Source: an uncultured Spirochaetota bacterium (GTDB lineage: Bacteria > Spirochaetota > Spirochaetia > SZUA-6 > Fen-1364). Taken from it: a stretch of 64,000 nt of DNA. Each line of letters begins with the position of its first letter. The first letter of the stretch is position 1. Below the pieces are notes generated by a model. It was given only the letters and a program-made list of their open reading frames with translations, was not told the origin of the DNA and searched no databases. This document shows, piece by piece, positions 2,534 through 64,000 of this stretch. The stretch spans positions 448,001-512,000 of the forward strand of contig CAWAHW010000001.1 in the NCBI GenBank assembly GCA_963781885.1, read 5' to 3'. The position numbers were made by a program, and so were the translations under genes.

Positions 2534-5137
2534 GTGAGAAAGCGAGTAAAACGCCTCCAGCACAACCTCGAACAAGAAAAAGCCATAGTGCGGACACTGA
2601 TTGACAATCTGCCCGATGGCATTGTCTTGAAAGACAGAGAAAGCCGCTTCATCTTCGCCAATCGGGTCATTGCGGAGCTGATGGGAGCGGCTGACCCATC
2701 GGTTCTGCCTGGCAAGACAGATCGCGATTTCTATCCCCAGGAGGTGGCCGATGCGTTGCTTGCAGAAGAGCGAGTTGTTATCGAGACCCGCAAGAGTTTG
2801 GTCAACAAGGAAGAGTCCAAATCGTTGTTGGGCGGGATGAGACGGGTCCTGACCACAAAGGTCCCGGTTTTTGACGCCGCCGGCGAGGTCACCGGCCTGC
2901 TTGGTATAACGCGCGACATCACGGAACGGCACAACGCGGAAGAAGACCTTCAAAGAAGTGACCGCCGCTACCGCGATCTCCTGGAGCAAGCCCCTGACGG
3001 GATCTTTCTCCTGGATGAAAAGGGGAACTTCCTCATCGCGAACATGACGATCTGCAATATGTTGGGATACTCGGAAGAAGAGCTGCTTCAGCGAGACATC
3101 CTGGATACCTACCCGCAAGAGTTACGGGAGGTGGGCAAGGCGCGTCTGGAAGAAATCATCTCAGAGGGGGCGGTACGATTCCAACGGCAGATGATGAGGA
3201 AGGATGGGTCTTCCTTTCCAGTTGAGATGAGTGCCCGAAGACTGGCAGATGGAAGGCTGCAAGGGATCGCGCACGACATCACGGAACGCAAACGCACCGA
3301 ATCTAAACTGGCTCTCGAGCGCAGGCTTCTCGAAGTCCTCCTGGACAATATTCCGGACTATATCTACTTCAAGGACACCCAAAGTCGCTTCATTCGTACA
3401 TCAAGGGCGCACGCAAGGATATTTGGCTTGCATGACGCCAAAGAGGCTATTGGAAAGACCGACATGGATTTTTTCTCCGAGGAGCATGCTCTGAAAGCTC
3501 TCGAAGATGAACAGCGCATCATTCGTACTGGCGAGCCCATTCTGAATGTGGAGGAAAAGGAGACCTGGCCAGATCGGCCGCAAACATGGGCCTTGACGAC
3601 CAAGATGCCCCTGCGTGATCAGGAAGGAAGCATCATCGGCACCTTCGGTATCTCACGTGACATCACCGAAACGAAGCGGGCCCAAGAAAGCATTTTGAGC
3701 CTCGCCCGATTTCCCGACGAAAGTCCTCACCCCGTCATGCGAGTCAAATCAGATGGGGCGGTCATTTACAAAAACAAGGCGAGTGAGGCTATGACATCAT
3801 CCTGGGCGGGTGTGGTTGACAGAAAAGCTCCCGAAGAGTTCTTACGTACGCTCACCCTTTCATGGGAATCGGGTGAGCAGAGGGAACTCGAGCTTCTCGA
3901 GGGCCAGAAGTCGTATGTTGTGACATTTGTGCCGTTTGCCGCCGAGGGGTATGTCAACATCTATGGCAGAGATGTGACAGAAGAAAAGAAACTGAGTGAA
4001 CGACTGAATCAGGCCCAGAAAATGGAGGCAATCGGTCAACTGACAGGAGGGGTCGCCCACGATTTTAACAATATCCTTCAGGCCATCACCGGCTATTGTG
4101 AGGTACTCAGACCGGGATTGGCCGAGAAGGACCAGAAGTTTTTGGCAGAGATCACCAAGGCGACTCAAAGGGCCGCGGCGCTCACCGCACAGCTTCTCGC
4201 ATTCAGTCGAAAGCAAATCTTAAGGCCTCAGGTTGTCGATACGAAGGATCTCATTGCCTTCATTCAAAAGATGCTCGAAAGGGTCATCGGGGAGGATATC
4301 GAGCTGCGAACCTCCATCGATCCCGATACGGGGAACTTTCTGGCAGACCCCGGGCAGATGGAACAGGTCCTGCTGAACCTCGCAGTCAACGCGCGGGACG
4401 CAATGCCTTCGGGGGGAACGTTCAGTATTGAAACTTCAAATCGCACATTCGACGAGGCCTATGTTCGCGATCACCCTGGGGCCAAGGCGGGGCTGTTTGT
4501 TTGCATCGCCGTGAGTGACACCGGAATCGGCATGGATCAAGAAACCCTCTCGCACATCTATGAACCGTTCTTTACCACCAAGGAGCTCGGGAAAGGGACC
4601 GGCTTGGGCCTGGCAACAGTTTTTGGGATCGTCAAGCAGAGTGAGGGCTATATCAACTGCTACAGCGAACCCGGCAAAGGAACGACGTTCACGATTTATC
4701 TCCCGGTTGTTCGCGCGGAGGCCGACAGACCGAAGGTTGTAGCCTCTGGAGTGCTTGCCCCGAGAGGGACGGAAACAATACTCCTCGTAGACGATGATAC
4801 GTCGGTTCGCAGCATTACACGGATCGCACTTGAGGGGGCGGGGTATTTCGTCATCGAGGCCTCAAGAGGAAAAGAGGCTCTGTCCGAGATCTCGACGCGC
4901 CACATTGCCGTCGCGCTGTTGGTCACCGATGTCGTCATGCCACAAATGAGCGGGAGAGAGCTCGCCCAGAAGCTGGAAGAGGCTTGCCCGGGAGTGAAGG
5001 TCCTTTATGTTTCGGGGTACACGGCGAATGTCATTTCGCACCATGGTATCCTTGAGACGGGAGTGGAATATTTGCAGAAGCCTTTCAGCACGATTGAGCT
5101 GCTCACCAAGGTGCGAGAGATACTGGACAGGCGATAA
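2534..5137 (+). CDS. Multi-PAS hybrid sensor histidine kinase/response regulator
   Basis: Several PAS/PAC repeats, H-box GGVAHDFNN, N-box LNLAVNARDA, FFTTK..GTGLGL, C-terminal receiver LLVDDD..TDVVMP. Confidence 0.95.
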   Translation: MRKRVKRLQHNLEQEKAIVRTLIDNLPDGIVLKDRESRFIFANRVIAELMGAADPSVLPGKTDRDFYPQEVADALLAEERVVIETRKSLVNKEESKSLLGGMRRVLTTKVPVFDAAGEVTGLLGITRDITERHNAEEDLQRSDRRYRDLLEQAPDGIFLLDEKGNFLIANMTICNMLGYSEEELLQRDILDTYPQELREVGKARLEEIISEGAVRFQRQMMRKDGSSFPVEMSARRLADGRLQGIAHDITERKRTESKLALERRLLEVLLDNIPDYIYFKDTQSRFIRTSRAHARIFGLHDAKEAIGKTDMDFFSEEHALKALEDEQRIIRTGEPILNVEEKETWPDRPQTWALTTKMPLRDQEGSIIGTFGISRDITETKRAQESILSLARFPDESPHPVMRVKSDGAVIYKNKASEAMTSSWAGVVDRKAPEEFLRTLTLSWESGEQRELELLEGQKSYVVTFVPFAAEGYVNIYGRDVTEEKKLSERLNQAQKMEAIGQLTGGVAHDFNNILQAITGYCEVLRPGLAEKDQKFLAEITKATQRAAALTAQLLAFSRKQILRPQVVDTKDLIAFIQKMLERVIGEDIELRTSIDPDTGNFLADPGQMEQVLLNLAVNARDAMPSGGTFSIETSNRTFDEAYVRDHPGAKAGLFVCIAVSDTGIGMDQETLSHIYEPFFTTKELGKGTGLGLATVFGIVKQSEGYINCYSEPGKGTTFTIYLPVVRAEADRPKVVASGVLAPRGTETILLVDDDTSVRSITRIALEGAGYFVIEASRGKEALSEISTRHIAVALLVTDVVMPQMSGRELAQKLEEACPGVKVLYVSGYTANVISHHGILETGVEYLQKPFSTIELLTKVREILDRR

Positions 5138-5325
5138 CAAGAGATGGTGAATCTGAAAAGGCGTTATTTGGGCAATGACCGCCGGCACCATGATGTTGAG
5201 CAGGCTGTTTTCGCAGATGACCCGCAGCTTATTGATTGATCCCCTCTCCTCGCAGGAGACAGAAAGCCCTTTAAGAGAGTATCCCCGAAAATGGAGATCG
5301 ATTATATTGATGAGGGTGGAGAGAC

Positions 5326-5568
5326 ATGGAAAGCCTCCTTCTGGACCTGCTGGAGTGGCTGGCAAAACACGATCGAAGCTATGATGAAGTAATGGACGCG
5401 TGGAGGACCTCCTGTCCCAGACTGCCGGTCTGGGAGGAAGCGAATGATCGCGGCCTTGTCGCAAGGACCCCCCTGCAGGGGCGCATTATGGTCGGGATCA
5501 CCCCATTGGGGCGAGCCTTGCTGGAGCAGCGCCGGCCCGGCGCAGTTGAAACGTTCCGCACCGCCTGA
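5326..5568 (+). CDS. Small conserved hypothetical protein
   Basis: RBS GGAGAG. Reads [27 protein letters not shown]. Ends 5 nt before the dehydrogenase start. Confidence 0.7.
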
Positions 5569-5573
5569 TTCCC

Positions 5574-6558
5574 ATGAAGGTCTCGATACTGGATGACTAC
5601 CACGACACGCTGCGCACGCTCGAATGCTTCCGCAAGCTTGACGGCCATGACGTCGAGGTCTGGAACGATCATGTACAGGACGCGGAGACGCTGGCCCGTC
5701 GCCTGAAGAACACGGAAGCCCTGGTGCTGATCCGCGAGCGAACCAGGATCGAGGCTCCACTCCTTGATCGCCTTTCCAAGCTGAAGCTGATCAGTCAACG
5801 GAGCGTCTACCCGCACATCGACGTCGACGCCTGCACCCGTCGCGGCATCATCGTGTCCTCGAACATGCACGCGGGCGCTCCATCGTATGCAGCGGCGGAA
5901 TTGACCTGGGGGCTCGTTCTTGCCGCAATGCGCGAGATTCCCGGACCAAGTGGCCGCGCTCAAAGCGGGGAAGTGGCAGGTTGGTGTCGGCAGCAGCGTG
6001 CGCGGGAAAACCCTCGGGATCTTCGGCTACGGTCGCATCGGGAGTGTGGTGGCGGGGTACGGCAAAGCCTTCGGCATGAGAGTGCTGGTGTGGTCGAGCG
6101 AACGGTCGCGGGCGCGGGCGTGGGCGGACGGCCATGAAACGGCGGTCGGGAAAGACCAGCTCTTTGAAGAATCCGACGTCGTGTCACTGCATCTACGCCT
6201 GGTGGAGGGCACACGCGGGATCGTCAAAGCGGGGGATCTGTCGCTCATGAAGCCCACGGCACTCATCGTGAATACAAGCCGAGCTCCTCTCATCGAACCG
6301 GGGGCGCTCGTGGAAGCGCTGCGGCGGGGTCGCCCGGGAATGGCGGCGGTGGACGTGTATGAAGAAGAGCCAATCGAGGACAGGCACAACCCCCTGCTGG
6401 AGATGAGCGGCGCCATCTGCACGCCGCACATCGGGTACGTCACCCGGGAGGAATTTGAAATACAATTCAGCGACATCTTCGACCAGATCACGGCATACTG
6501 CGCGGGAACGCCGATCAATGTCGTCAATCCGGAAGTGATAGCCGAGCTGAAGCGCTAA
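5574..6558 (+). CDS. D-2-hydroxyacid dehydrogenase family protein (one frameshift near 5941)
   Basis: ORFs 5574..6137 and 5920..6558 join. GYGRIG NAD-binding, VNTSR, DVYEEEP and TPHIGY motifs. Confidence 0.9.
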
Positions 6559-56757: not shown

Positions 56758-59220
56758 ATGTTTCGCAACTACGTCATCACTGCCCTGCGCAACATCCGCA
56801 AGAACACGCTCACGTCGCTCATCAGCGTGATCGGATTCTCCATCGGCATCGCCTGCGCGTCGTTCATCCTCCTCTACGTGCAGAACGAGCTGTCGTTCGA
56901 CAGGTTCCTTCCCGGGTACGACCGTATCCAGCGCCTGCTGATCAAGGCCACCACGTCCGACGGCACGGAGCTCCTGACGCCTCTCATGAACATCAGCATC
57001 AGGAATATCCTGCCATTGGATACGGGGGTGGAGAGCTTCACGCAATTCATCGTGAGCGACGCGATCCTGGGGACCGACACCCGCAGCCGCTACGAGGCGA
57101 ACAACTTCTATCTTGCCGACTCCTCATTCCTGAAGGTCTTTGATTATCCACTCGCCATCGGGGACAGGAACACCGCCCTGGAGAAGCCGAACTCGGTGAT
57201 CCTCACCTCCGCCATGGCCAGGAAATACTTCGGAGACGTGAGCCCCCTGGGCAAGGTCCTCACCTTCAAGAACACCATGATGGGCGATACCGCCTATTAC
57301 CTGACCGTGACCGGTGTCTTTGCGGAGATCCCGACGAACACCACCTTCCAGTTCGGGTTCGTCATGAACTGCCCGTTTGAAAAGTACCTTGCAACCATCC
57401 TGGCCTTCTACGAGCAGGTGTACAAGGTCGACGCCCCTGAAGACTACGCCAAAATAGAAGTGCAGACGTACGTGATGCTGAAGCCCGGTGCGTCGCTCCG
57501 CCTTTTCCAGGGCACCCTGCGGAAAGCGATCGAGCGGTTGCCGACGAACGACGCGACATACATCTACAAGAACTACCAGCTTCTGAGCGAGCCCCTTGAC
57601 GGCATCTACCTCCATTCGAAGATCGAATCCCCCAACGAAAAAAAGGGAAACGTCCTGTTCATCCTCCTCCTGATCGGCCTGGGGCTCATTGTCATCGTCA
57701 TCGCGTGCATCAATGTCATCAACCTCACGACGGCACGGGCGCTCACCCGGGAGAAGGAGATCGGCATCAGGAAGACTCTTGGGGCCTCCCGGAGGGAATT
57801 GATCGTCCAGCACCTGGTCGAATCGGTGCTCCTGAGCTTCATCTCCTTCTGGTTTGCCCTGGTGATCGTGGAGGTTTGCCTTCCCCTGTTCAACCAGCTC
57901 GTCCAGCGATCGCTTGAGGTCCATTACCTGCAGAACCCCGCCTACCTGCTTTCCGCGCTCGCCGTCGCGCTCCTCATCGGCATCCTGGCCGGGCTCTACC
58001 CGGCGTTCGGCATTTCTTCCTTTAACGTCATCAGGGCGCTGAAGGGACAGAAGACCCCCGGCTCCCGGCGCTTCCGCGAGATCATGGTCGTCGTCCAATT
58101 CGTCTTCTCCATCGGGTTGTTCATCCTTTCCGCCGTCATCCTGCGGGAGTTCCAGACGCTGAAGAGCACGAGCTCGGGTCTCGATACCAAGGACGTGTAC
58201 ATGATGAGATTGAACGTGCCGGCGGTCGAGAATGAGCTTCCCACCCTCAAGAAATCGGTCCTCGCTCTTCCGGGCGTCACCGATGTCGCCGCATCGTCAT
58301 TTGCGGGGTGGCAATACGGCGGTCTGGTCAAGGATTTCCCGCTCGTCGCGTCGGTCAAGACGCGCCACGTCGACATCATGGTGGTCGACGCGGGCTATCT
58401 CCACATCAATGGCATCCCTGTCGTCAAGGGCAGGGATTTTGACGAAAACGGCGACACGGCGGAAATACTGCAGCTCGTCGTCAACGAGGCGGCGCACCGC
58501 CAACTGGGCCTGGAGATCGGGAGCCTCGTGGAAGAAAATCAGATCAGGGGAAGGGTCGTGGGCATCGCCGGGGACTTCGACTATCTGCCACCCTCCGGCA
58601 GGATGAGGCCGTTGATCCTGACGATCCACTCACCCTTCCTCACGAATACGTCCTACGCGCCGACGCCCATCCACCTCGCCTACCTGCTCGTCAAGATCCG
58701 ACCGGACGCGCAGGCGCAGACGCTGGAAAAAGTCGGCGCCATCTGGAACGATCTCAACCCGAATGCCGCCTTCGAGTGTCAATCGGTGGACAAGGCGATG
58801 CAGGACCAGCTTGACGCCCTGAACCGCTCGTTCGAAGCCGTCCTCGACATCTCCACCTTCCTGGCTTTCCTGCTCTCGGGTCTCGGGCTTTTCGGCCTGG
58901 CGTCGTTCGAGATCGAGCGGCGCACGAAGGAGGTGGGCATCCGCAAGGCCCTCGGGGCGACCTCCGCGCAGATCGCGCTGCAGTTCATCGGCGGTTTCCT
59001 GAAGCTGGTCGCGCTGGCGAACGTCGTGGCGTGGCCGCTGGCCTTCGCGCTGATCCGGCTCGTCTTCACCATGATCCAGTACCCGCATCCCCTGGTGATC
59101 GGGCCGACGATCTTTTTCGAGGTGGGGCTCATCTCGGTGGCCGTCATGGTGGTGACCGTCGGCTCGCAGACCCTGCGCGCCGCGTCGGTGAATCCCGTCA
59201 ATACTTTACGCTATGAATAG
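56758..59220 (+). CDS. Duplicated MacB/FtsX-type ABC permease
   Basis: MFRNYVITALRN, REKEIGIRKTLGA and RTKEVGIRKALGA, NPVNTLRYE. Confidence 0.92.
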   Translation: MFRNYVITALRNIRKNTLTSLISVIGFSIGIACASFILLYVQNELSFDRFLPGYDRIQRLLIKATTSDGTELLTPLMNISIRNILPLDTGVESFTQFIVSDAILGTDTRSRYEANNFYLADSSFLKVFDYPLAIGDRNTALEKPNSVILTSAMARKYFGDVSPLGKVLTFKNTMMGDTAYYLTVTGVFAEIPTNTTFQFGFVMNCPFEKYLATILAFYEQVYKVDAPEDYAKIEVQTYVMLKPGASLRLFQGTLRKAIERLPTNDATYIYKNYQLLSEPLDGIYLHSKIESPNEKKGNVLFILLLIGLGLIVIVIACINVINLTTARALTREKEIGIRKTLGASRRELIVQHLVESVLLSFISFWFALVIVEVCLPLFNQLVQRSLEVHYLQNPAYLLSALAVALLIGILAGLYPAFGISSFNVIRALKGQKTPGSRRFREIMVVVQFVFSIGLFILSAVILREFQTLKSTSSGLDTKDVYMMRLNVPAVENELPTLKKSVLALPGVTDVAASSFAGWQYGGLVKDFPLVASVKTRHVDIMVVDAGYLHINGIPVVKGRDFDENGDTAEILQLVVNEAAHRQLGLEIGSLVEENQIRGRVVGIAGDFDYLPPSGRMRPLILTIHSPFLTNTSYAPTPIHLAYLLVKIRPDAQAQTLEKVGAIWNDLNPNAAFECQSVDKAMQDQLDALNRSFEAVLDISTFLAFLLSGLGLFGLASFEIERRTKEVGIRKALGATSAQIALQFIGGFLKLVALANVVAWPLAFALIRLVFTMIQYPHPLVIGPTIFFEVGLISVAVMVVTVGSQTLRAASVNPVNTLRYE

Positions 59221-60626
59221 CGGGGACTATACTCGGCCCATGCATCGCGCAAAGGTGCTCGCCATTGACGACGATGCGGACGTCCTCCTTGCCCTCGAGC
59301 TGCTCTTGAAGGAAAACGGCCATTCGGTCACGGTCGACACGCATCCGGCGAATATCCCGTCCCTCCTGAAAGCCTGCCCCTATGACGTCGTGTTTCTCGA
59401 CATGAACTTCGCCAAGGAAGCCACCGACGGGAAGGAGGGTCTGCACTGGCTGCGGGAGATCCGCGCGCGGGATCCCGACGCGACGATCGTCCCCCTCACC
59501 GCGTTCGGGGACGTCGATCTTGCCGTGCGCGCCATGAAGGAGGGGGCGGCGGATTTCATCCTGAAGCCCTGGAAGAACGAGAAGCTGCTCGGCACGCTGT
59601 CGATGGTGCTCCAGCTGCGGGAGTCCCGGCGGGAGATCGAGCGCCTGCGATCGCAGCGGAAGCAGCTCGTCGCGGACATGGATCAACAGGTCGGGGACAT
59701 GATCGGAAGGTGCGACGCGATGCAGCGCGTCTTCGCGCTGATCCACAAGGTGGCGGCCACGGACGCCAACGTGCTCGTCATGGGGGAAAACGGCACCGGC
59801 AAGGAGCTCGTCGCGCGGGCGCTCCATCGGCAGTCCCTGCGGGCGGCGCAGGTCTTCATCGGGGTGGACATGGCGTCCATCGTGGACAATCTTTTCGAAA
59901 GCGAATTGTTCGGGCACGTCCGGGGCGCCTTCACGGACGCGCGGGAGAACCGGGTGGGGCGTTTTGAAAGCGCGACGGGCGGCACGCTTTTCCTCGACGA
60001 GATCGGCAACCTGCCGCTCGCAATGCAGGCGAAGCTGCTGCGGGCAATCGAAACGCAGGAGGTCACGCCGGTGGGATCCAACAAGCCGCGGCCGATCGAC
60101 ATCCGTCTCATCTGCGCGACGAACATGCCCGTGCACGAGATGGTGACGGCAAAAGAGTTCCGCCAGGACCTCCTCTACCGCATCAACACGATCGAGATCC
60201 GCCTCCCGCCCCTCCGCGAGAGGCGGGAGGACATCCCCCTCCTGATCGAGCATTTCGCGTCCCAGTATTACCGCAAGTACAAGATATTCCCCAAGAAGAT
60301 GCCTCGACAGACCATCGCCACCCTCCAGGAGTACGACTGGCCCGGGCAATGTCCGGGAGCTGAAGCACGCGCTGGAGCGGGCGATCATCGTGAGCGATTC
60401 CCCGTATCTGTCGCCGCAGGACTTCCTGCTCCCGTCACGGGGCGCGCGGGAGACGGATAGCGGGCGCGCCGGCAGCAGTCTCGAATCCGTGGAAAAAGAG
60501 TGCATCCAGAAGAGCCTGGAAAAGACCGGGGGAAACGTCAGCCGCGCGGCGGACGACCTGGGCATCTCGCGGGCGTCCCTGTACCGGCGGATTGAAAAGT
60601 ATGGTCTTCAGAAACTATCGGGTTAA
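59213..60626 (+). CDS. NtrC-family sigma54-dependent response regulator (frameshift near 60345)
   Basis: IDDD, LDMNF, GENGTGKE, ESELFGH, GAFTDA, FLDEIG, WPGNVREL across the shift, Fis-type HTH. Confidence 0.92.
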
Positions 60627-62017: not shown

Positions 62018-63436
62018 ATGGAGAATGCGAGCCCGGACTTCCTTCACCGCCTCGAGGACGCGCTTGCCCGGCGCGGGGTCTGGCTGGAGGCACATCGCAT
62101 CCCGCTCCTGAAAGACCTCGCGGGCACCTATCGGACGCTTTTTGAGAGCGTGGTCGGGACGCTCGTGAAGAAGGGGCTCCTCCGCGAGGATCCCTACGAC
62201 TACGACGCCAAGGTGAGCGCGATCCTCGTGCCGCCGGACACCGTTCTGCCCGAAGCGGAAGAGGACACGGAGCTGAGCCGGCGCATCTCCCTCTATCGCC
62301 GTCAGCTGGAGCTCCTCCTGGCCGAAACTCCCTTCACGCTCGCCTCCCTGGACCTGTCGCTTCTCAAAAAGATCTCCACTCTTTTTTCCTACGTGGACTG
62401 GGAGGGATTCGGCGAGACGTCGCACAGCCCCACGACGCGCGCGGTGGCGCACCGGGTGTCGAACGTGGGGCTCTCCCGGGACGCACTGTCGTCCCGGGTT
62501 CTCCACGAATCGCGGGTGCAGCTGGAGAAGCTGAGCCGCGACATCCGCGAACGTCTCGCGGAGGTGGAGGCATGGCAGCGCGAATCGTGGAAAGCAGCGC
62601 TGCGCGCGAAAGCGCTCCCGCGCATGCCGGCGCCGGAGGCGCGGACCGCCGAAGAACGGGCGGCGCTCGCGCGGGAGATGAAGAAGGCGTTCGACGCGGC
62701 CTCACCCGGCGGCGCGTGGCACCCGCATCTCGTGCAAGAGATACTCGGCGAGGATCACCCCCCGGGCGCAGAAGAGCGCCGGGAAAAGCTGCTCGCCTCC
62801 CTTGCCCTGCCCCAGCCCGGGGCGGCAAAACCGGACGACGGGCCCCGGCGCCGCGCCGAGCTCCTGGAGTCCATTCGCGGCCTCTGCCGCGCGGGGGAGG
62901 AGATCGGTCTCTGCCGTGAGGTCCTGGAGGAGAACGAGCGGGTCATGGACGCGCGGAAGCTCGGCGTCCTCCAGCGATTCCGACGATGGCTGCGCCGGCG
63001 CCTGGGAAGGCGCGAGGACCGCTTCTACCAGATCGAGTATCGCACGTCCGCGGGCGCGGAGCTCCTGACGGAGACAGTCGATTTTCTGCGGCTTTTGTCC
63101 GAGATGCAGGAATTGCAGGGCGTGCTCGCCGACGTCGCGCAACCGGGAAGCCCCGGGCATCGACGCGTCGAGGCGATGGACGAGGAGAGGCTCTGCGATT
63201 TCCTCGACTGGCAGGTCCGCCAGCTCCGTCAGCTCCATCGCCGCATGGAGGGGCTGAACGCGCTCTTCCAGATGAAGGCGGTGGAGGCCCGGGGCGCGTC
63301 GCCGCGGAGCATCAAGCTGGAGCTCCTGGCGATAGAGAACGGCCTCATCCGCGCCGACGCCGCGCGGCGGGAAAGCGCCGCCTGCCGGGAGACCCACGCC
63401 CGCCCGCCGGCTCCGCCGCTGCCCGCGCCCCCTTGA
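62018..63436 (+). CDS. Helical hypothetical protein (spirochaete-type conserved)
   Basis: 472-aa ORF with its own promoter. LVKKGLLREDPYDYD motif. Confidence 0.75.
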   Translation: MENASPDFLHRLEDALARRGVWLEAHRIPLLKDLAGTYRTLFESVVGTLVKKGLLREDPYDYDAKVSAILVPPDTVLPEAEEDTELSRRISLYRRQLELLLAETPFTLASLDLSLLKKISTLFSYVDWEGFGETSHSPTTRAVAHRVSNVGLSRDALSSRVLHESRVQLEKLSRDIRERLAEVEAWQRESWKAALRAKALPRMPAPEARTAEERAALAREMKKAFDAASPGGAWHPHLVQEILGEDHPPGAEERREKLLASLALPQPGAAKPDDGPRRRAELLESIRGLCRAGEEIGLCREVLEENERVMDARKLGVLQRFRRWLRRRLGRREDRFYQIEYRTSAGAELLTETVDFLRLLSEMQELQGVLADVAQPGSPGHRRVEAMDEERLCDFLDWQVRQLRQLHRRMEGLNALFQMKAVEARGASPRSIKLELLAIENGLIRADAARRESAACRETHARPPAPPLPAPP

Positions 63437-63473
63437 CGCAAAGGTGATTACATGGTATTTATCATGTAATCAC
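63433..63473 (+). promoter_or_regulatory. Promoter/operator palindrome
   Basis: TTGACG at 63433. Perfect 11-bp inverted repeat GTGATTACATG-N8-CATGTAATCAC at 63444-63473. Confidence 0.75.
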
Positions 63474-63496
63474 TCAAGAGAGAGGGGGTGGCAGCC

Positions 63497-63910
63497 ATGC
63501 GCGTGCCCATCGTCGACATCGGCAATTCGAAAGGCATCCGCATTCCCCAGGCCATCCTGAAACAGGTGCAGTTCGCGGATGAGGTGGAGATGGACGTCTC
63601 CGAGGGGAGGATCACCCTGCGCAGGTCCATCGACCCTTCCTTCGTGCCGGAGTTCCGCTCCATCGCCTCCCTGGACGATCCCACCATCCAGCGCATCCTT
63701 CGCAAGATCGGCGGATCGGACCTGATCACCGCCCTGGTCGGCGCGGACAAGAAGGTGAAGGACGCCATCTACCGCAATCTCTCCGAACGGGCGAAATCCT
63801 ACGTCGCCCCCGCGGTGGCGCGGCTGGAAAAGGGCGACGTGCGCGATCTCATCATCGAAAGGAGCCGCAACCTCCTCTGCGAGGCGCTCCTTGACGTCAT
63901 ACGGGAATAG
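63497..63910 (+). CDS. AbrB/MazE-type DNA-binding domain fused to a FliG C-terminal-like domain
   Basis: IVDIGNSKGIRIPQAILKQ..EVEMDVSEGRITL, then FRSIASLDDPTIQRILRKI..LITALVGA..VKDAIYRNLSERA. Confidence 0.8.
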   Translation: MRVPIVDIGNSKGIRIPQAILKQVQFADEVEMDVSEGRITLRRSIDPSFVPEFRSIASLDDPTIQRILRKIGGSDLITALVGADKKVKDAIYRNLSERAKSYVAPAVARLEKGDVRDLIIERSRNLLCEALLDVIRE

Positions 63911-63920
63911 GGGGTGAGAG

Positions 63921-64000
63921 GTGGCGATCAAAGGTGAATGGATCCGTTACGGCCGGGGCTCGGGGTACTTCGCGAGGCCCGAGAAGGCGGTGACGCCGCT
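63921..64000 (+). CDS. 5' end of a gene, possibly dienelactone hydrolase family (runs off the window)
   Basis: GTG start, MAIKGEWIRYGRGSGYFARPEKAVTP.. Confidence 0.45.
   Translation, partial: MAIKGEWIRYGRGSGYFARPEKAVTP

Follow-up and report, generated by a model that had tools for sequence, protein, structure and literature searches.

We analysed a 64,000-nucleotide stretch of DNA from an uncultured Spirochaetota bacterium (assembly GCA_963781885.1, contig CAWAHW010000001.1, positions 448,001 to 512,000), referred to below as the window, and in particular a gene near its right end whose 137-amino-acid (aa) product joins an AbrB/MazE-type DNA-binding domain to a FliG_C-like domain. This gene is preceded by a pair of operator half-sites that flank the -10 box of its own promoter. 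We consider it probable, at roughly two chances in three (0.65), that the fusion protein is a self-repressing local regulator in which the FliG_C-like domain serves for oligomerisation and/or receives input from a partner.

Residues 46 to 137 of the protein (63632-63907, + strand) are confidently predicted to fold as a FliG_C-like six-helix bundle from Pfam, PDB matches, a structure model and fold searches. Pfam FliG_C (PF01706) matched residues 52-117 (E 6.5e-12; 46.1 bits against a cut-off of 23.3) and was found in all 38 aligned family members, and PDB sequence matches were exclusively to FliG, the best one (6e-8) being 8ucs, a FliG fragment solved with the MotAB stator bound. In an AlphaFold2 model built from the 38-sequence alignment, residues 51-137 form a helical bundle with block values of the predicted local distance difference test (pLDDT) of 76-92. 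Foldseek returned only FliG in the 15 PDB rows down to E 5.9e-3 (within ranks 1-16), the isolated T. maritima C-domain reaching a target-normalised template-modelling score of 0.75. A VIA-align search of 48,161 chains, which is independent of Foldseek, gave Z 15.1 and a root-mean-square deviation of 1.1 Å over 87 residues against 1lkv (T. maritima FliG 229-320) and Z 13.5-14.8 for three further FliG C-domains; below the C-domains no row exceeded Z 6.7 (other FliG domains and MgtE), the top non-FliG row standing at Z 5.7. The C-terminal two thirds of the protein are thus a true FliG_C six-helix bundle.

The N-terminal part (residues 1-45; 63497-63631, +) was assigned to the swapped-hairpin, AbrB/MazE-type DNA-binding domains by Pfam, NCBIfam and a family profile. 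Membership of the AbrB/MazE/SpoVT superfamily, weak for this protein alone, is clear at the level of the family: MazE_antitoxin (PF04014) matched 35 of the 38 aligned members at E ≤ 0.01 (best 1.5e-6), and the family profile recovered from PDB an AbrB/MazE/SpoVT domain protein (7d2n, 4e-4) and MazE chains (about 0.02). The NCBIfam models doc_partner, ChpS and MazE gave weak matches, far under their cut-offs. The motif IGNSKGIRIP is almost invariant among the 38 aligned members, whose most conserved part is the N-domain, and its nearest relatives are MazE/AbrB-type proteins of antitoxin size (about 80 aa), 45-57% identical over residues 1-47. The two-domain architecture claimed by the original prediction, an earlier reading of this DNA by a model from the sequence alone, therefore stood, its C-terminal half being recovered both as a Pfam match and as a fold; so did the description of an antitoxin-type head whose neutralising tail was replaced, a folded FliG_C-like domain being found in its place.

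The open reading frame (ORF) runs from ATG 63497 to the TAG stop codon read at 63908-63910 (+). Although the ORF list contains an alternative GTG start at 63488, it is not the start, because the orthologues all begin at the Met of 63497 (38 of 38 relatives in the family alignment). A purine-rich ribosome-binding site, AGGGGGTGG, was read directly from the sequence at 63483-63491 (+), and orthologous loci have a GGAGG-like run at an equal distance. Both domains are conserved, with a mean column identity of 78% across the 38 aligned members, and a stretch LEKGD...ERSRN, which holds a 2-residue insertion relative to FliG, is invariant in the fusion family.

The operator was located by alignment with orthologous promoters. 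Its left half-site, GTGATTAC (63444-63451), lies 5 nt past a sigma-70-type -35 box, TTGACG (63433-63438, +; direct reading), and its right half-site, GTAATCAC (63466-63473), repeats the left one as its reverse complement at a centre-to-centre distance of 22 bp; neither half-site carries a strand. The 14-bp spacer between them holds a TG-n element and a -10 box TATTTA (63453-63461, +; box at 63456-63461) 17 nt past the -35 box, a -10 assignment that we make from alignment with orthologous promoters, where the hexamer is mostly TATACT-like. Most orthologous loci likewise have TTGACA or a near match 4-5 nt ahead of the left half-site. The half-sites are two 8-bp units GT(A/G)AT(T/C)AC, and their consensus, GTAATTAC, is a palindrome in its own right.

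The perfect 11-bp inverted repeat reported at the promoter by the original prediction (arms 63444-63454 and 63463-63473) was recovered, with its layout kept across the orthologous promoters. Taken alone it is only mildly unusual, since chance alone is expected to yield 0.39 ± 0.67 matches to the 11-mer with at most one mismatch over the window, and at least two turned up in 6 of 100 shuffles. Its weight comes from its conservation across orthologous promoters and from its being the sole paired site in the 4.64-Mb genome: GTRATYAC occurs 151 times there and forms a pair at 10-18 bp spacing once, at this promoter, which answers the genome scan that had been proposed. The 14-bp spacer scored best in 37 of 38 orthologous loci. 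All 36 distinct 30-mers have T at position 2 and A at position 7, and position 24 does not vary either; 35 of them carry G at position 1 and 28 carry C at position 8, and positions 1, 29 and 30 are kept in 34-35 of the 36. The layout precedes the orthologue in nearly all loci with readable upstream DNA, was seen at 55-95% protein identity, and also stands ahead of six phylum-sample orthologues, one of them only 34% identical.

With the operator defined by its GT....AC frame and 22-bp phase, matches in 278,097 bases of orthologous-locus DNA were confined to these promoters, to third half-sites at two of the loci and to one further site in L096 (see below). The third half-sites lie another 22 bp upstream, in phase with the pair (L023, 7270-7321; L040, 3926-3977). 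The inner four bases of the half-sites vary, being AT-rich in most loci and G/C-rich in this clade. Within loci, the left and the reverse-complemented right half-site matched at 238 of 296 positions, as against 219.3 ± 4.5 in across-locus shuffles, of which 1 in 5000 reached 238, a contrast that is inflated by the kinship of the loci; the inner bases tend to change jointly in both half-sites. The operator forms an island of 30% G+C beside DNA of 87.5% G+C, the contigs of the genome having 61-64%. Operator searches in other genomes are informative only at ≤1 mismatch: a looser search (≤3 mismatches) in five other genomes gave matches no commoner than those of the reversed-pattern control.

From these features we infer DNA binding, autorepression, an oligomeric state and a role for the C-domain. 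The AbrB/MazE-type N-domain would dimerise and bind DNA, and two such swapped-hairpin dimers, as a dimer of dimers, would occupy the two half-sites on the same face of the DNA, two helical turns apart. The FliG_C-like domains, derived from a bundle that would have left the flagellar switch, may bridge the two dimers or take up a partner. Autorepression is the natural reading, because a repressor sitting on both half-sites would hide the -10 box; as long as it stayed there the operon would be kept low, until a partner or a signal released the repressor and turned the operon on. FliG_C-only paralogues found at other loci might act as SinI-like antagonists by pairing with the C-domain, and an ankyrin protein linked to the gene elsewhere is a second candidate partner.

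Several observations weigh against this self-repressing regulator. In the protein of this genome the N-domain scored under threshold in Pfam (MazE_antitoxin, residues 8-42: E 0.0016, 18.8 bits against a cut-off of 24.7), and residues 1-50 of the AlphaFold2 model are of low confidence (block pLDDT 46-57), which may be explained by a fold that, as known for the superfamily, needs an interleaved dimer. The -10 box fits TATAAT at only three of six positions, a consensus promoter scan of L001 6000-10000 called no promoter at this site, and operator scoring mis-registered 3 of 38 loci (L023, L030 and L031), where the sites were placed by eye at the usual position. As to the proposed partners, FliG_C and ankyrin are joined in none of 34 longer distant multi-domain FliG_C proteins, and the C-domain is also highly conserved in lineages that have neither ankyrin nor FliG_C-only genes, such as this genome, which hints at some conserved partner or function.

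Immediately downstream, a co-oriented gene of the dienelactone hydrolase family starts at GTG 63921, 10 nt past the stop codon of the fusion gene (63921-64000 in the window, +; 272 aa, extending past the window; Pfam DLH 2.4e-43), and no terminator-like site was found between the two. Two further genes come after it, past the window: one for an anaerobic sulfatase maturase (TIGR03942, 379.5 bits; cut-off 349.45) and one with a LUD domain. The operon would continue into the hydrolase gene and possibly into these two. The original prediction had seen no toxin in the start of the next gene and had left open one just beyond the window; the DLH match bears out the former, and these three genes were found in place of the latter. 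No toxin family was found among the neighbours of the fusion gene in this genome, and none of them is flagellar. Upstream lie genes for a TP0584-family protein, a histidine kinase and a sigma-54 activator. The TP0584-family ORF (62018-63436, +; 472 aa) has no Pfam match and scored 299 bits against a cut-off of 125 with the NCBIfam model; in other genomes of the genus it and the hydrolase gene are on different contigs. The sigma-54 activator (receiver and AAA+ domains, 59213-60460, +) has its Fis-type helix-turn-helix in another frame (60390-60626, +), a split that is probably due to a frameshift or sequencing error. Further along the contig, past the window and four genes downstream, a 2031-aa ORF (L001, 9789-15884) gave faint, sub-threshold Pfam matches.

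The hydrolase does not depend on the fusion protein, since 16 of the 20 other genomes of the genus have the hydrolase-maturase pair but no fusion gene with it; the matching DNA begins at or just inside the hydrolase gene, and at the four loci that were inspected the genes upstream are not the same. Among these genomes only G005 has the fusion.

We also took a census of downstream genes at 49 distinct orthologous loci, with families checked by Pfam; all of them are co-stranded with the fusion gene. One conserved family of three-repeat ankyrin proteins (about 105-150 aa) was found at 17 loci, plus a truncated copy in L040, a DLH hydrolase at 12, small FliG_C-only proteins, often beside the ankyrin gene, at 12, and a four-helix membrane protein of about 130 aa without family match at 6. 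A GNAT gene followed the fusion at one locus (L059), and DUF4180 with two GNATs in L090. L024 and L088 have no recognised partner despite at least 3 kb of downstream DNA, nothing but a 77-aa ORF without Pfam match follows in L060, and four loci were too short to judge (L025, L039, L055 and L057). The membrane protein (L035 4414-4842; L048 4427-4819; L054 1937-2326; L091; L099 2343-2726) has four predicted helices and a conserved loop, matches neither Pfam nor NCBIfam, and follows fusion or FliG_C-only genes. For the linked ankyrin family, only generic ankyrin-repeat matches (27-50% identity) were found in the genome of the window, and no FliG_C-only gene was found there. In a tree of 48 fusion proteins (duplicates L030, L049 and L052 and the frameshifted L022 left out), the hydrolase-linked proteins cluster (3 changes) within a 16-row clade of 100/95 support and the ankyrin-linked ones are scattered (7 changes), which suggests, given the midpoint root, that the ankyrin link is the older and the hydrolase link derived.

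The FliG_C-only paralogues are of two kinds, one of about 85 aa and one of about 135-150 aa with an N-terminus like a decayed AbrB-type domain; some of those that follow the fusion gene keep a degenerate copy of the N-domain. Members of the longer kind (L051 4459-4905; L061 1328-1741 and 1717-2208; L062 1576-1974) have lost the conserved DNA-binding motif. The shorter kind, searched with the G179 protein as the query, turned up just as rarely as the fusion (3 of 301 phylum-sample genomes). In G179 the fusion gene is solitary, and a second promoter-operator with one mismatch (L096, 2663-2692) stands ahead of an unlinked 85-aa FliG_C-only gene (2738-2995). This second copy speaks more strongly than any other observation for assigning the operator to the set of fusion and FliG_C-only genes. 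The gene that bears it is followed by flgN and flgK (3386-5809), the sole flagellar adjacency that we saw.

With regard to distribution, a word-indexed search gave 324 protein clusters at E ≤ 0.001, and thus the fusion is not the singleton that the original prediction had allowed for; among the matches listed (120 of 324), most are of 137 aa and 67-100% identical. An exhaustive search added true fusions at 33-47% identity (P0123, P0125, P0128, P0129, P0136 and P0138), one distant true fusion being from Sporosalibacterium faouarense of the phylum Bacillota. P0124, P0127, P0130, P0132, P0134, P0139, P0141 and P0147 were rejected as AbrB fusions, being FliG_C-only with a degenerate N-terminus. 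An atlas cluster of 73 members has FliG_C in 100% and MazE_antitoxin in 21%. A full-length orthologue was present in 5 of 41 related genomes (2 of 21 of the genus) and, in the search across Spirochaetota that had been proposed, in 7 of 401 phylum-sample genomes (6 of 153 genera); the fusion gene is accessory and patchily distributed. The carriers among genomes identified are exclusively Spirochaetota plus Sporosalibacterium, and the viral contigs gave 25 pattern matches and no relative of the fusion protein. At one locus the orthologue is split over two frames (L022, 6001-6409; residues 1-70 and 67-136), which points to a frameshift or an assembly error.

Homologues are annotated at source as 'flagellar motor switch protein FliG', 'antitoxin component of MazEF' or 'hypothetical'; the databases carry the fusion family under such automatic names only. 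The original prediction knew of no characterised example, and none of an AbrB/MazE plus FliG_C fusion was found in the paper listings and abstracts searched, which lay outside subscription journals. A passage of PMC13066512 concerns a differently annotated Leptospira gene. Distant FliG_C proteins (P0142-P0215) included some with two to four tandem FliG_C domains, DUF4116 plus FliG_C, and proteins of 996 aa (FliM-DUF4116-FliG_M-FliG_C) and 948 aa (FliG_C with a weak MotA_ExbB match), and neither ankyrin nor MazE domains were present in the 34 longer multi-domain ones scanned. As FliG_C occurs in many odd architectures, the domain seems less exclusive to FliG than is usually assumed.

The best-placed alternative, which we nevertheless regard as unlikely, is that the protein is a motor-coupled regulator or a decoy whose FliG_C-like domain binds a partner of the FliG C-domain, such as the MotA stator or a FliG-binding brake or clutch. 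On that view the motor's state would be read out through operator occupancy, or the protein would titrate some factor that binds FliG, perhaps the linked ankyrin protein. We compared the domain with the three full-length FliG proteins of the same genome (L002 730-1857, L003 754-1857 and L004 1471-2580, on other contigs), two of which are near-identical in the C-domain and the third divergent. In this alignment the fusion's domain begins at the last Phe of the MFXF position, the preceding part being absent; the region ahead of MFXF is the FliM-binding ARM_C of FliG. The torque helix still opens with RN-S-R, and a later Arg is also retained. The torque-helix Lys position is Val here, the acidic pair, Glu-Asp in the genome's FliG proteins, is Ala-Pro here and variable in relatives, and a 2-residue insertion follows the acidic-pair position. 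In E. coli FliG, five charged torque-helix residues contact MotA; of this charged set the fusion protein keeps two arginines, the Lys and the acidic pair being replaced. Full-length FliG was rejected as an identity of the protein, which has no N or M domains and scored 39.4 bits against a cut-off of 226.7 with NCBIfam fliG (TIGR00207; profile positions 241-294 of 338 matched). In a tree of C-domains (three short-coverage rows dropped), true FliG forms one clade (18 rows, 100/98 support), and the fusion and FliG_C-only proteins the other.

A motor link is favoured by how closely the fold matches the torque-helix subdomain (Z 15.1), by the MotAB-bound FliG fragment as best PDB sequence match, by retention of both arginines aligned with those of the FliG torque helix, whose residues have roles in motor contact, and by a C-domain strongly conserved irrespective of neighbouring genes; the range of the carriers and the operator-bearing FliG_C-only gene ahead of flgN-flgK in G179 point the same way. 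On the other side, a gene present in 7 of 401 phylum-sample and 2 of 21 genus genomes is not a core component of the motor, this genome has no paired operator close to flagellar genes, the torque helix is altered as described, the region ahead of MFXF is absent, and the C-domains stand in a clade apart from true FliG. Rarity, altered torque-helix residues and the missing ARM_C together argue against a FliG-like place in the C-ring; the protein might still bind a motor protein. The coupling of transcription to flagellar motor components that the original prediction had advanced was thus not borne out: the gene is accessory, its neighbours are non-flagellar and its operator occurs nowhere else in the genome.

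A related idea, to which we give slender odds, is a FliG-mimic switch, in which the DNA-tethered domain would compete with the rotor domain for a FliG-binding protein, either the ankyrin protein or the stator. If it were true, promoter occupancy would serve as a readout of motor state, or the module would act as a buffer for a motility brake, and this would be the first case of a torque domain reused as a regulatory sensor or decoy.

We hold it improbable that the locus is a type II toxin-antitoxin-like module whose FliG_C-like domain neutralises a non-canonical downstream toxin (the hydrolase here; the ankyrin, GNAT or membrane protein elsewhere). The antitoxin-sized relatives of the N-domain and its weak NCBIfam matches are consistent with such a module, as are the patchy distribution and the antitoxin-first order with a self-operator and variable downstream partners, as in promiscuous antitoxin families. 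However, no nuclease-type toxin family (MazF, PIN or Doc) was present among the recurrent downstream genes scanned; GNAT acetyltransferases, whose fold is shared by some known toxins, were seen at two loci. Furthermore, a hydrolase that occurs with its maturase without the fusion in most genomes of the genus needs no antidote, L024 and L088 lack a recognised partner, and the C-terminal part of the AlphaFold2 model is well folded, with no disordered tail. The PADLOC-DB anti-phage defence models gave no family for the fusion protein at E ≤ 0.01, the linked ankyrin protein of other loci matched only generic ankyrin-bearing models, and the viral contigs held no relative. Finally, that the palindrome serves another regulator or is a mere promoter feature, the protein being a non-DNA-binding adaptor, draws on the sub-threshold score of the N-domain here and on its DNA binding being a prediction, and is very improbable, given that the operator accompanies the gene through many different flanking contexts and recurs at an unlinked gene of the same set in G179, and that conservation within the protein is highest in the N-domain.

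If the fusion protein is the self-repressing regulator that we favour, an antitoxin-type repressor has taken over a torque domain for its effector part, in a family of hundreds of sequence clusters with a very well-defined operator. Its binding site is predictable to the base, which makes for a clean and testable system, and its variable partner genes (ankyrin, FliG_C-only, small membrane protein and hydrolase) offer a route to ligands of free-standing FliG_C domains. The annotation is corrected as well: neither 'flagellar motor switch protein FliG' nor 'antitoxin component of MazEF' fits.

Compared with known systems, the protein shares with MazE/AbrB-type type II antitoxins the superfamily of its N-terminal 45 or so residues, the first place in the operon and a palindromic operator over its own promoter; it differs from them in that no toxin gene adjoins and in that a folded FliG_C-like bundle takes the place of the short, largely disordered toxin-binding tail. 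Bacillus AbrB and SpoVT have the same plan of a swapped-hairpin DNA-binding head with an effector C-terminal domain, which in AbrB builds higher oligomers and in SpoVT is a GAF domain that senses a signal. The C-terminal fold of the fusion protein is a different one, AbrB recognises loose sites where the fusion has a strict pair of 8-bp palindromes, and the fusion protein would be a local and not a global regulator, with a single paired site in the genome (related papers: PMC4022651 and bioRxiv 10.1101/2024.08.12.607668). With the C-terminal domain of FliG (PF01706) it has in common a Pfam score above cut-off, the fold and the RN-S-R residues; it differs from FliG in lacking the N and M domains and the acidic pair, in the 2-residue insertion with its invariant LEKGD motif, in the separate clade of its C-domain and in its accessory distribution. 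It is through this domain that FliG, in the rotor, receives torque from the stator. The SinR/SinI pair of Bacillus subtilis, in which the repressor SinR is antagonised by its small paralogue SinI, has unrelated folds, and this genome has no FliG_C-only protein for the SinI-like antagonist role proposed above. As a functional analogy it offers the same arrangement of a DNA-binding head with a helical oligomerisation domain and an adjoining paralogue made of the helical domain only. Set beside these systems, the fusion protein is best described as a putative AbrB/MazE-type autorepressor with an unprecedented effector domain.

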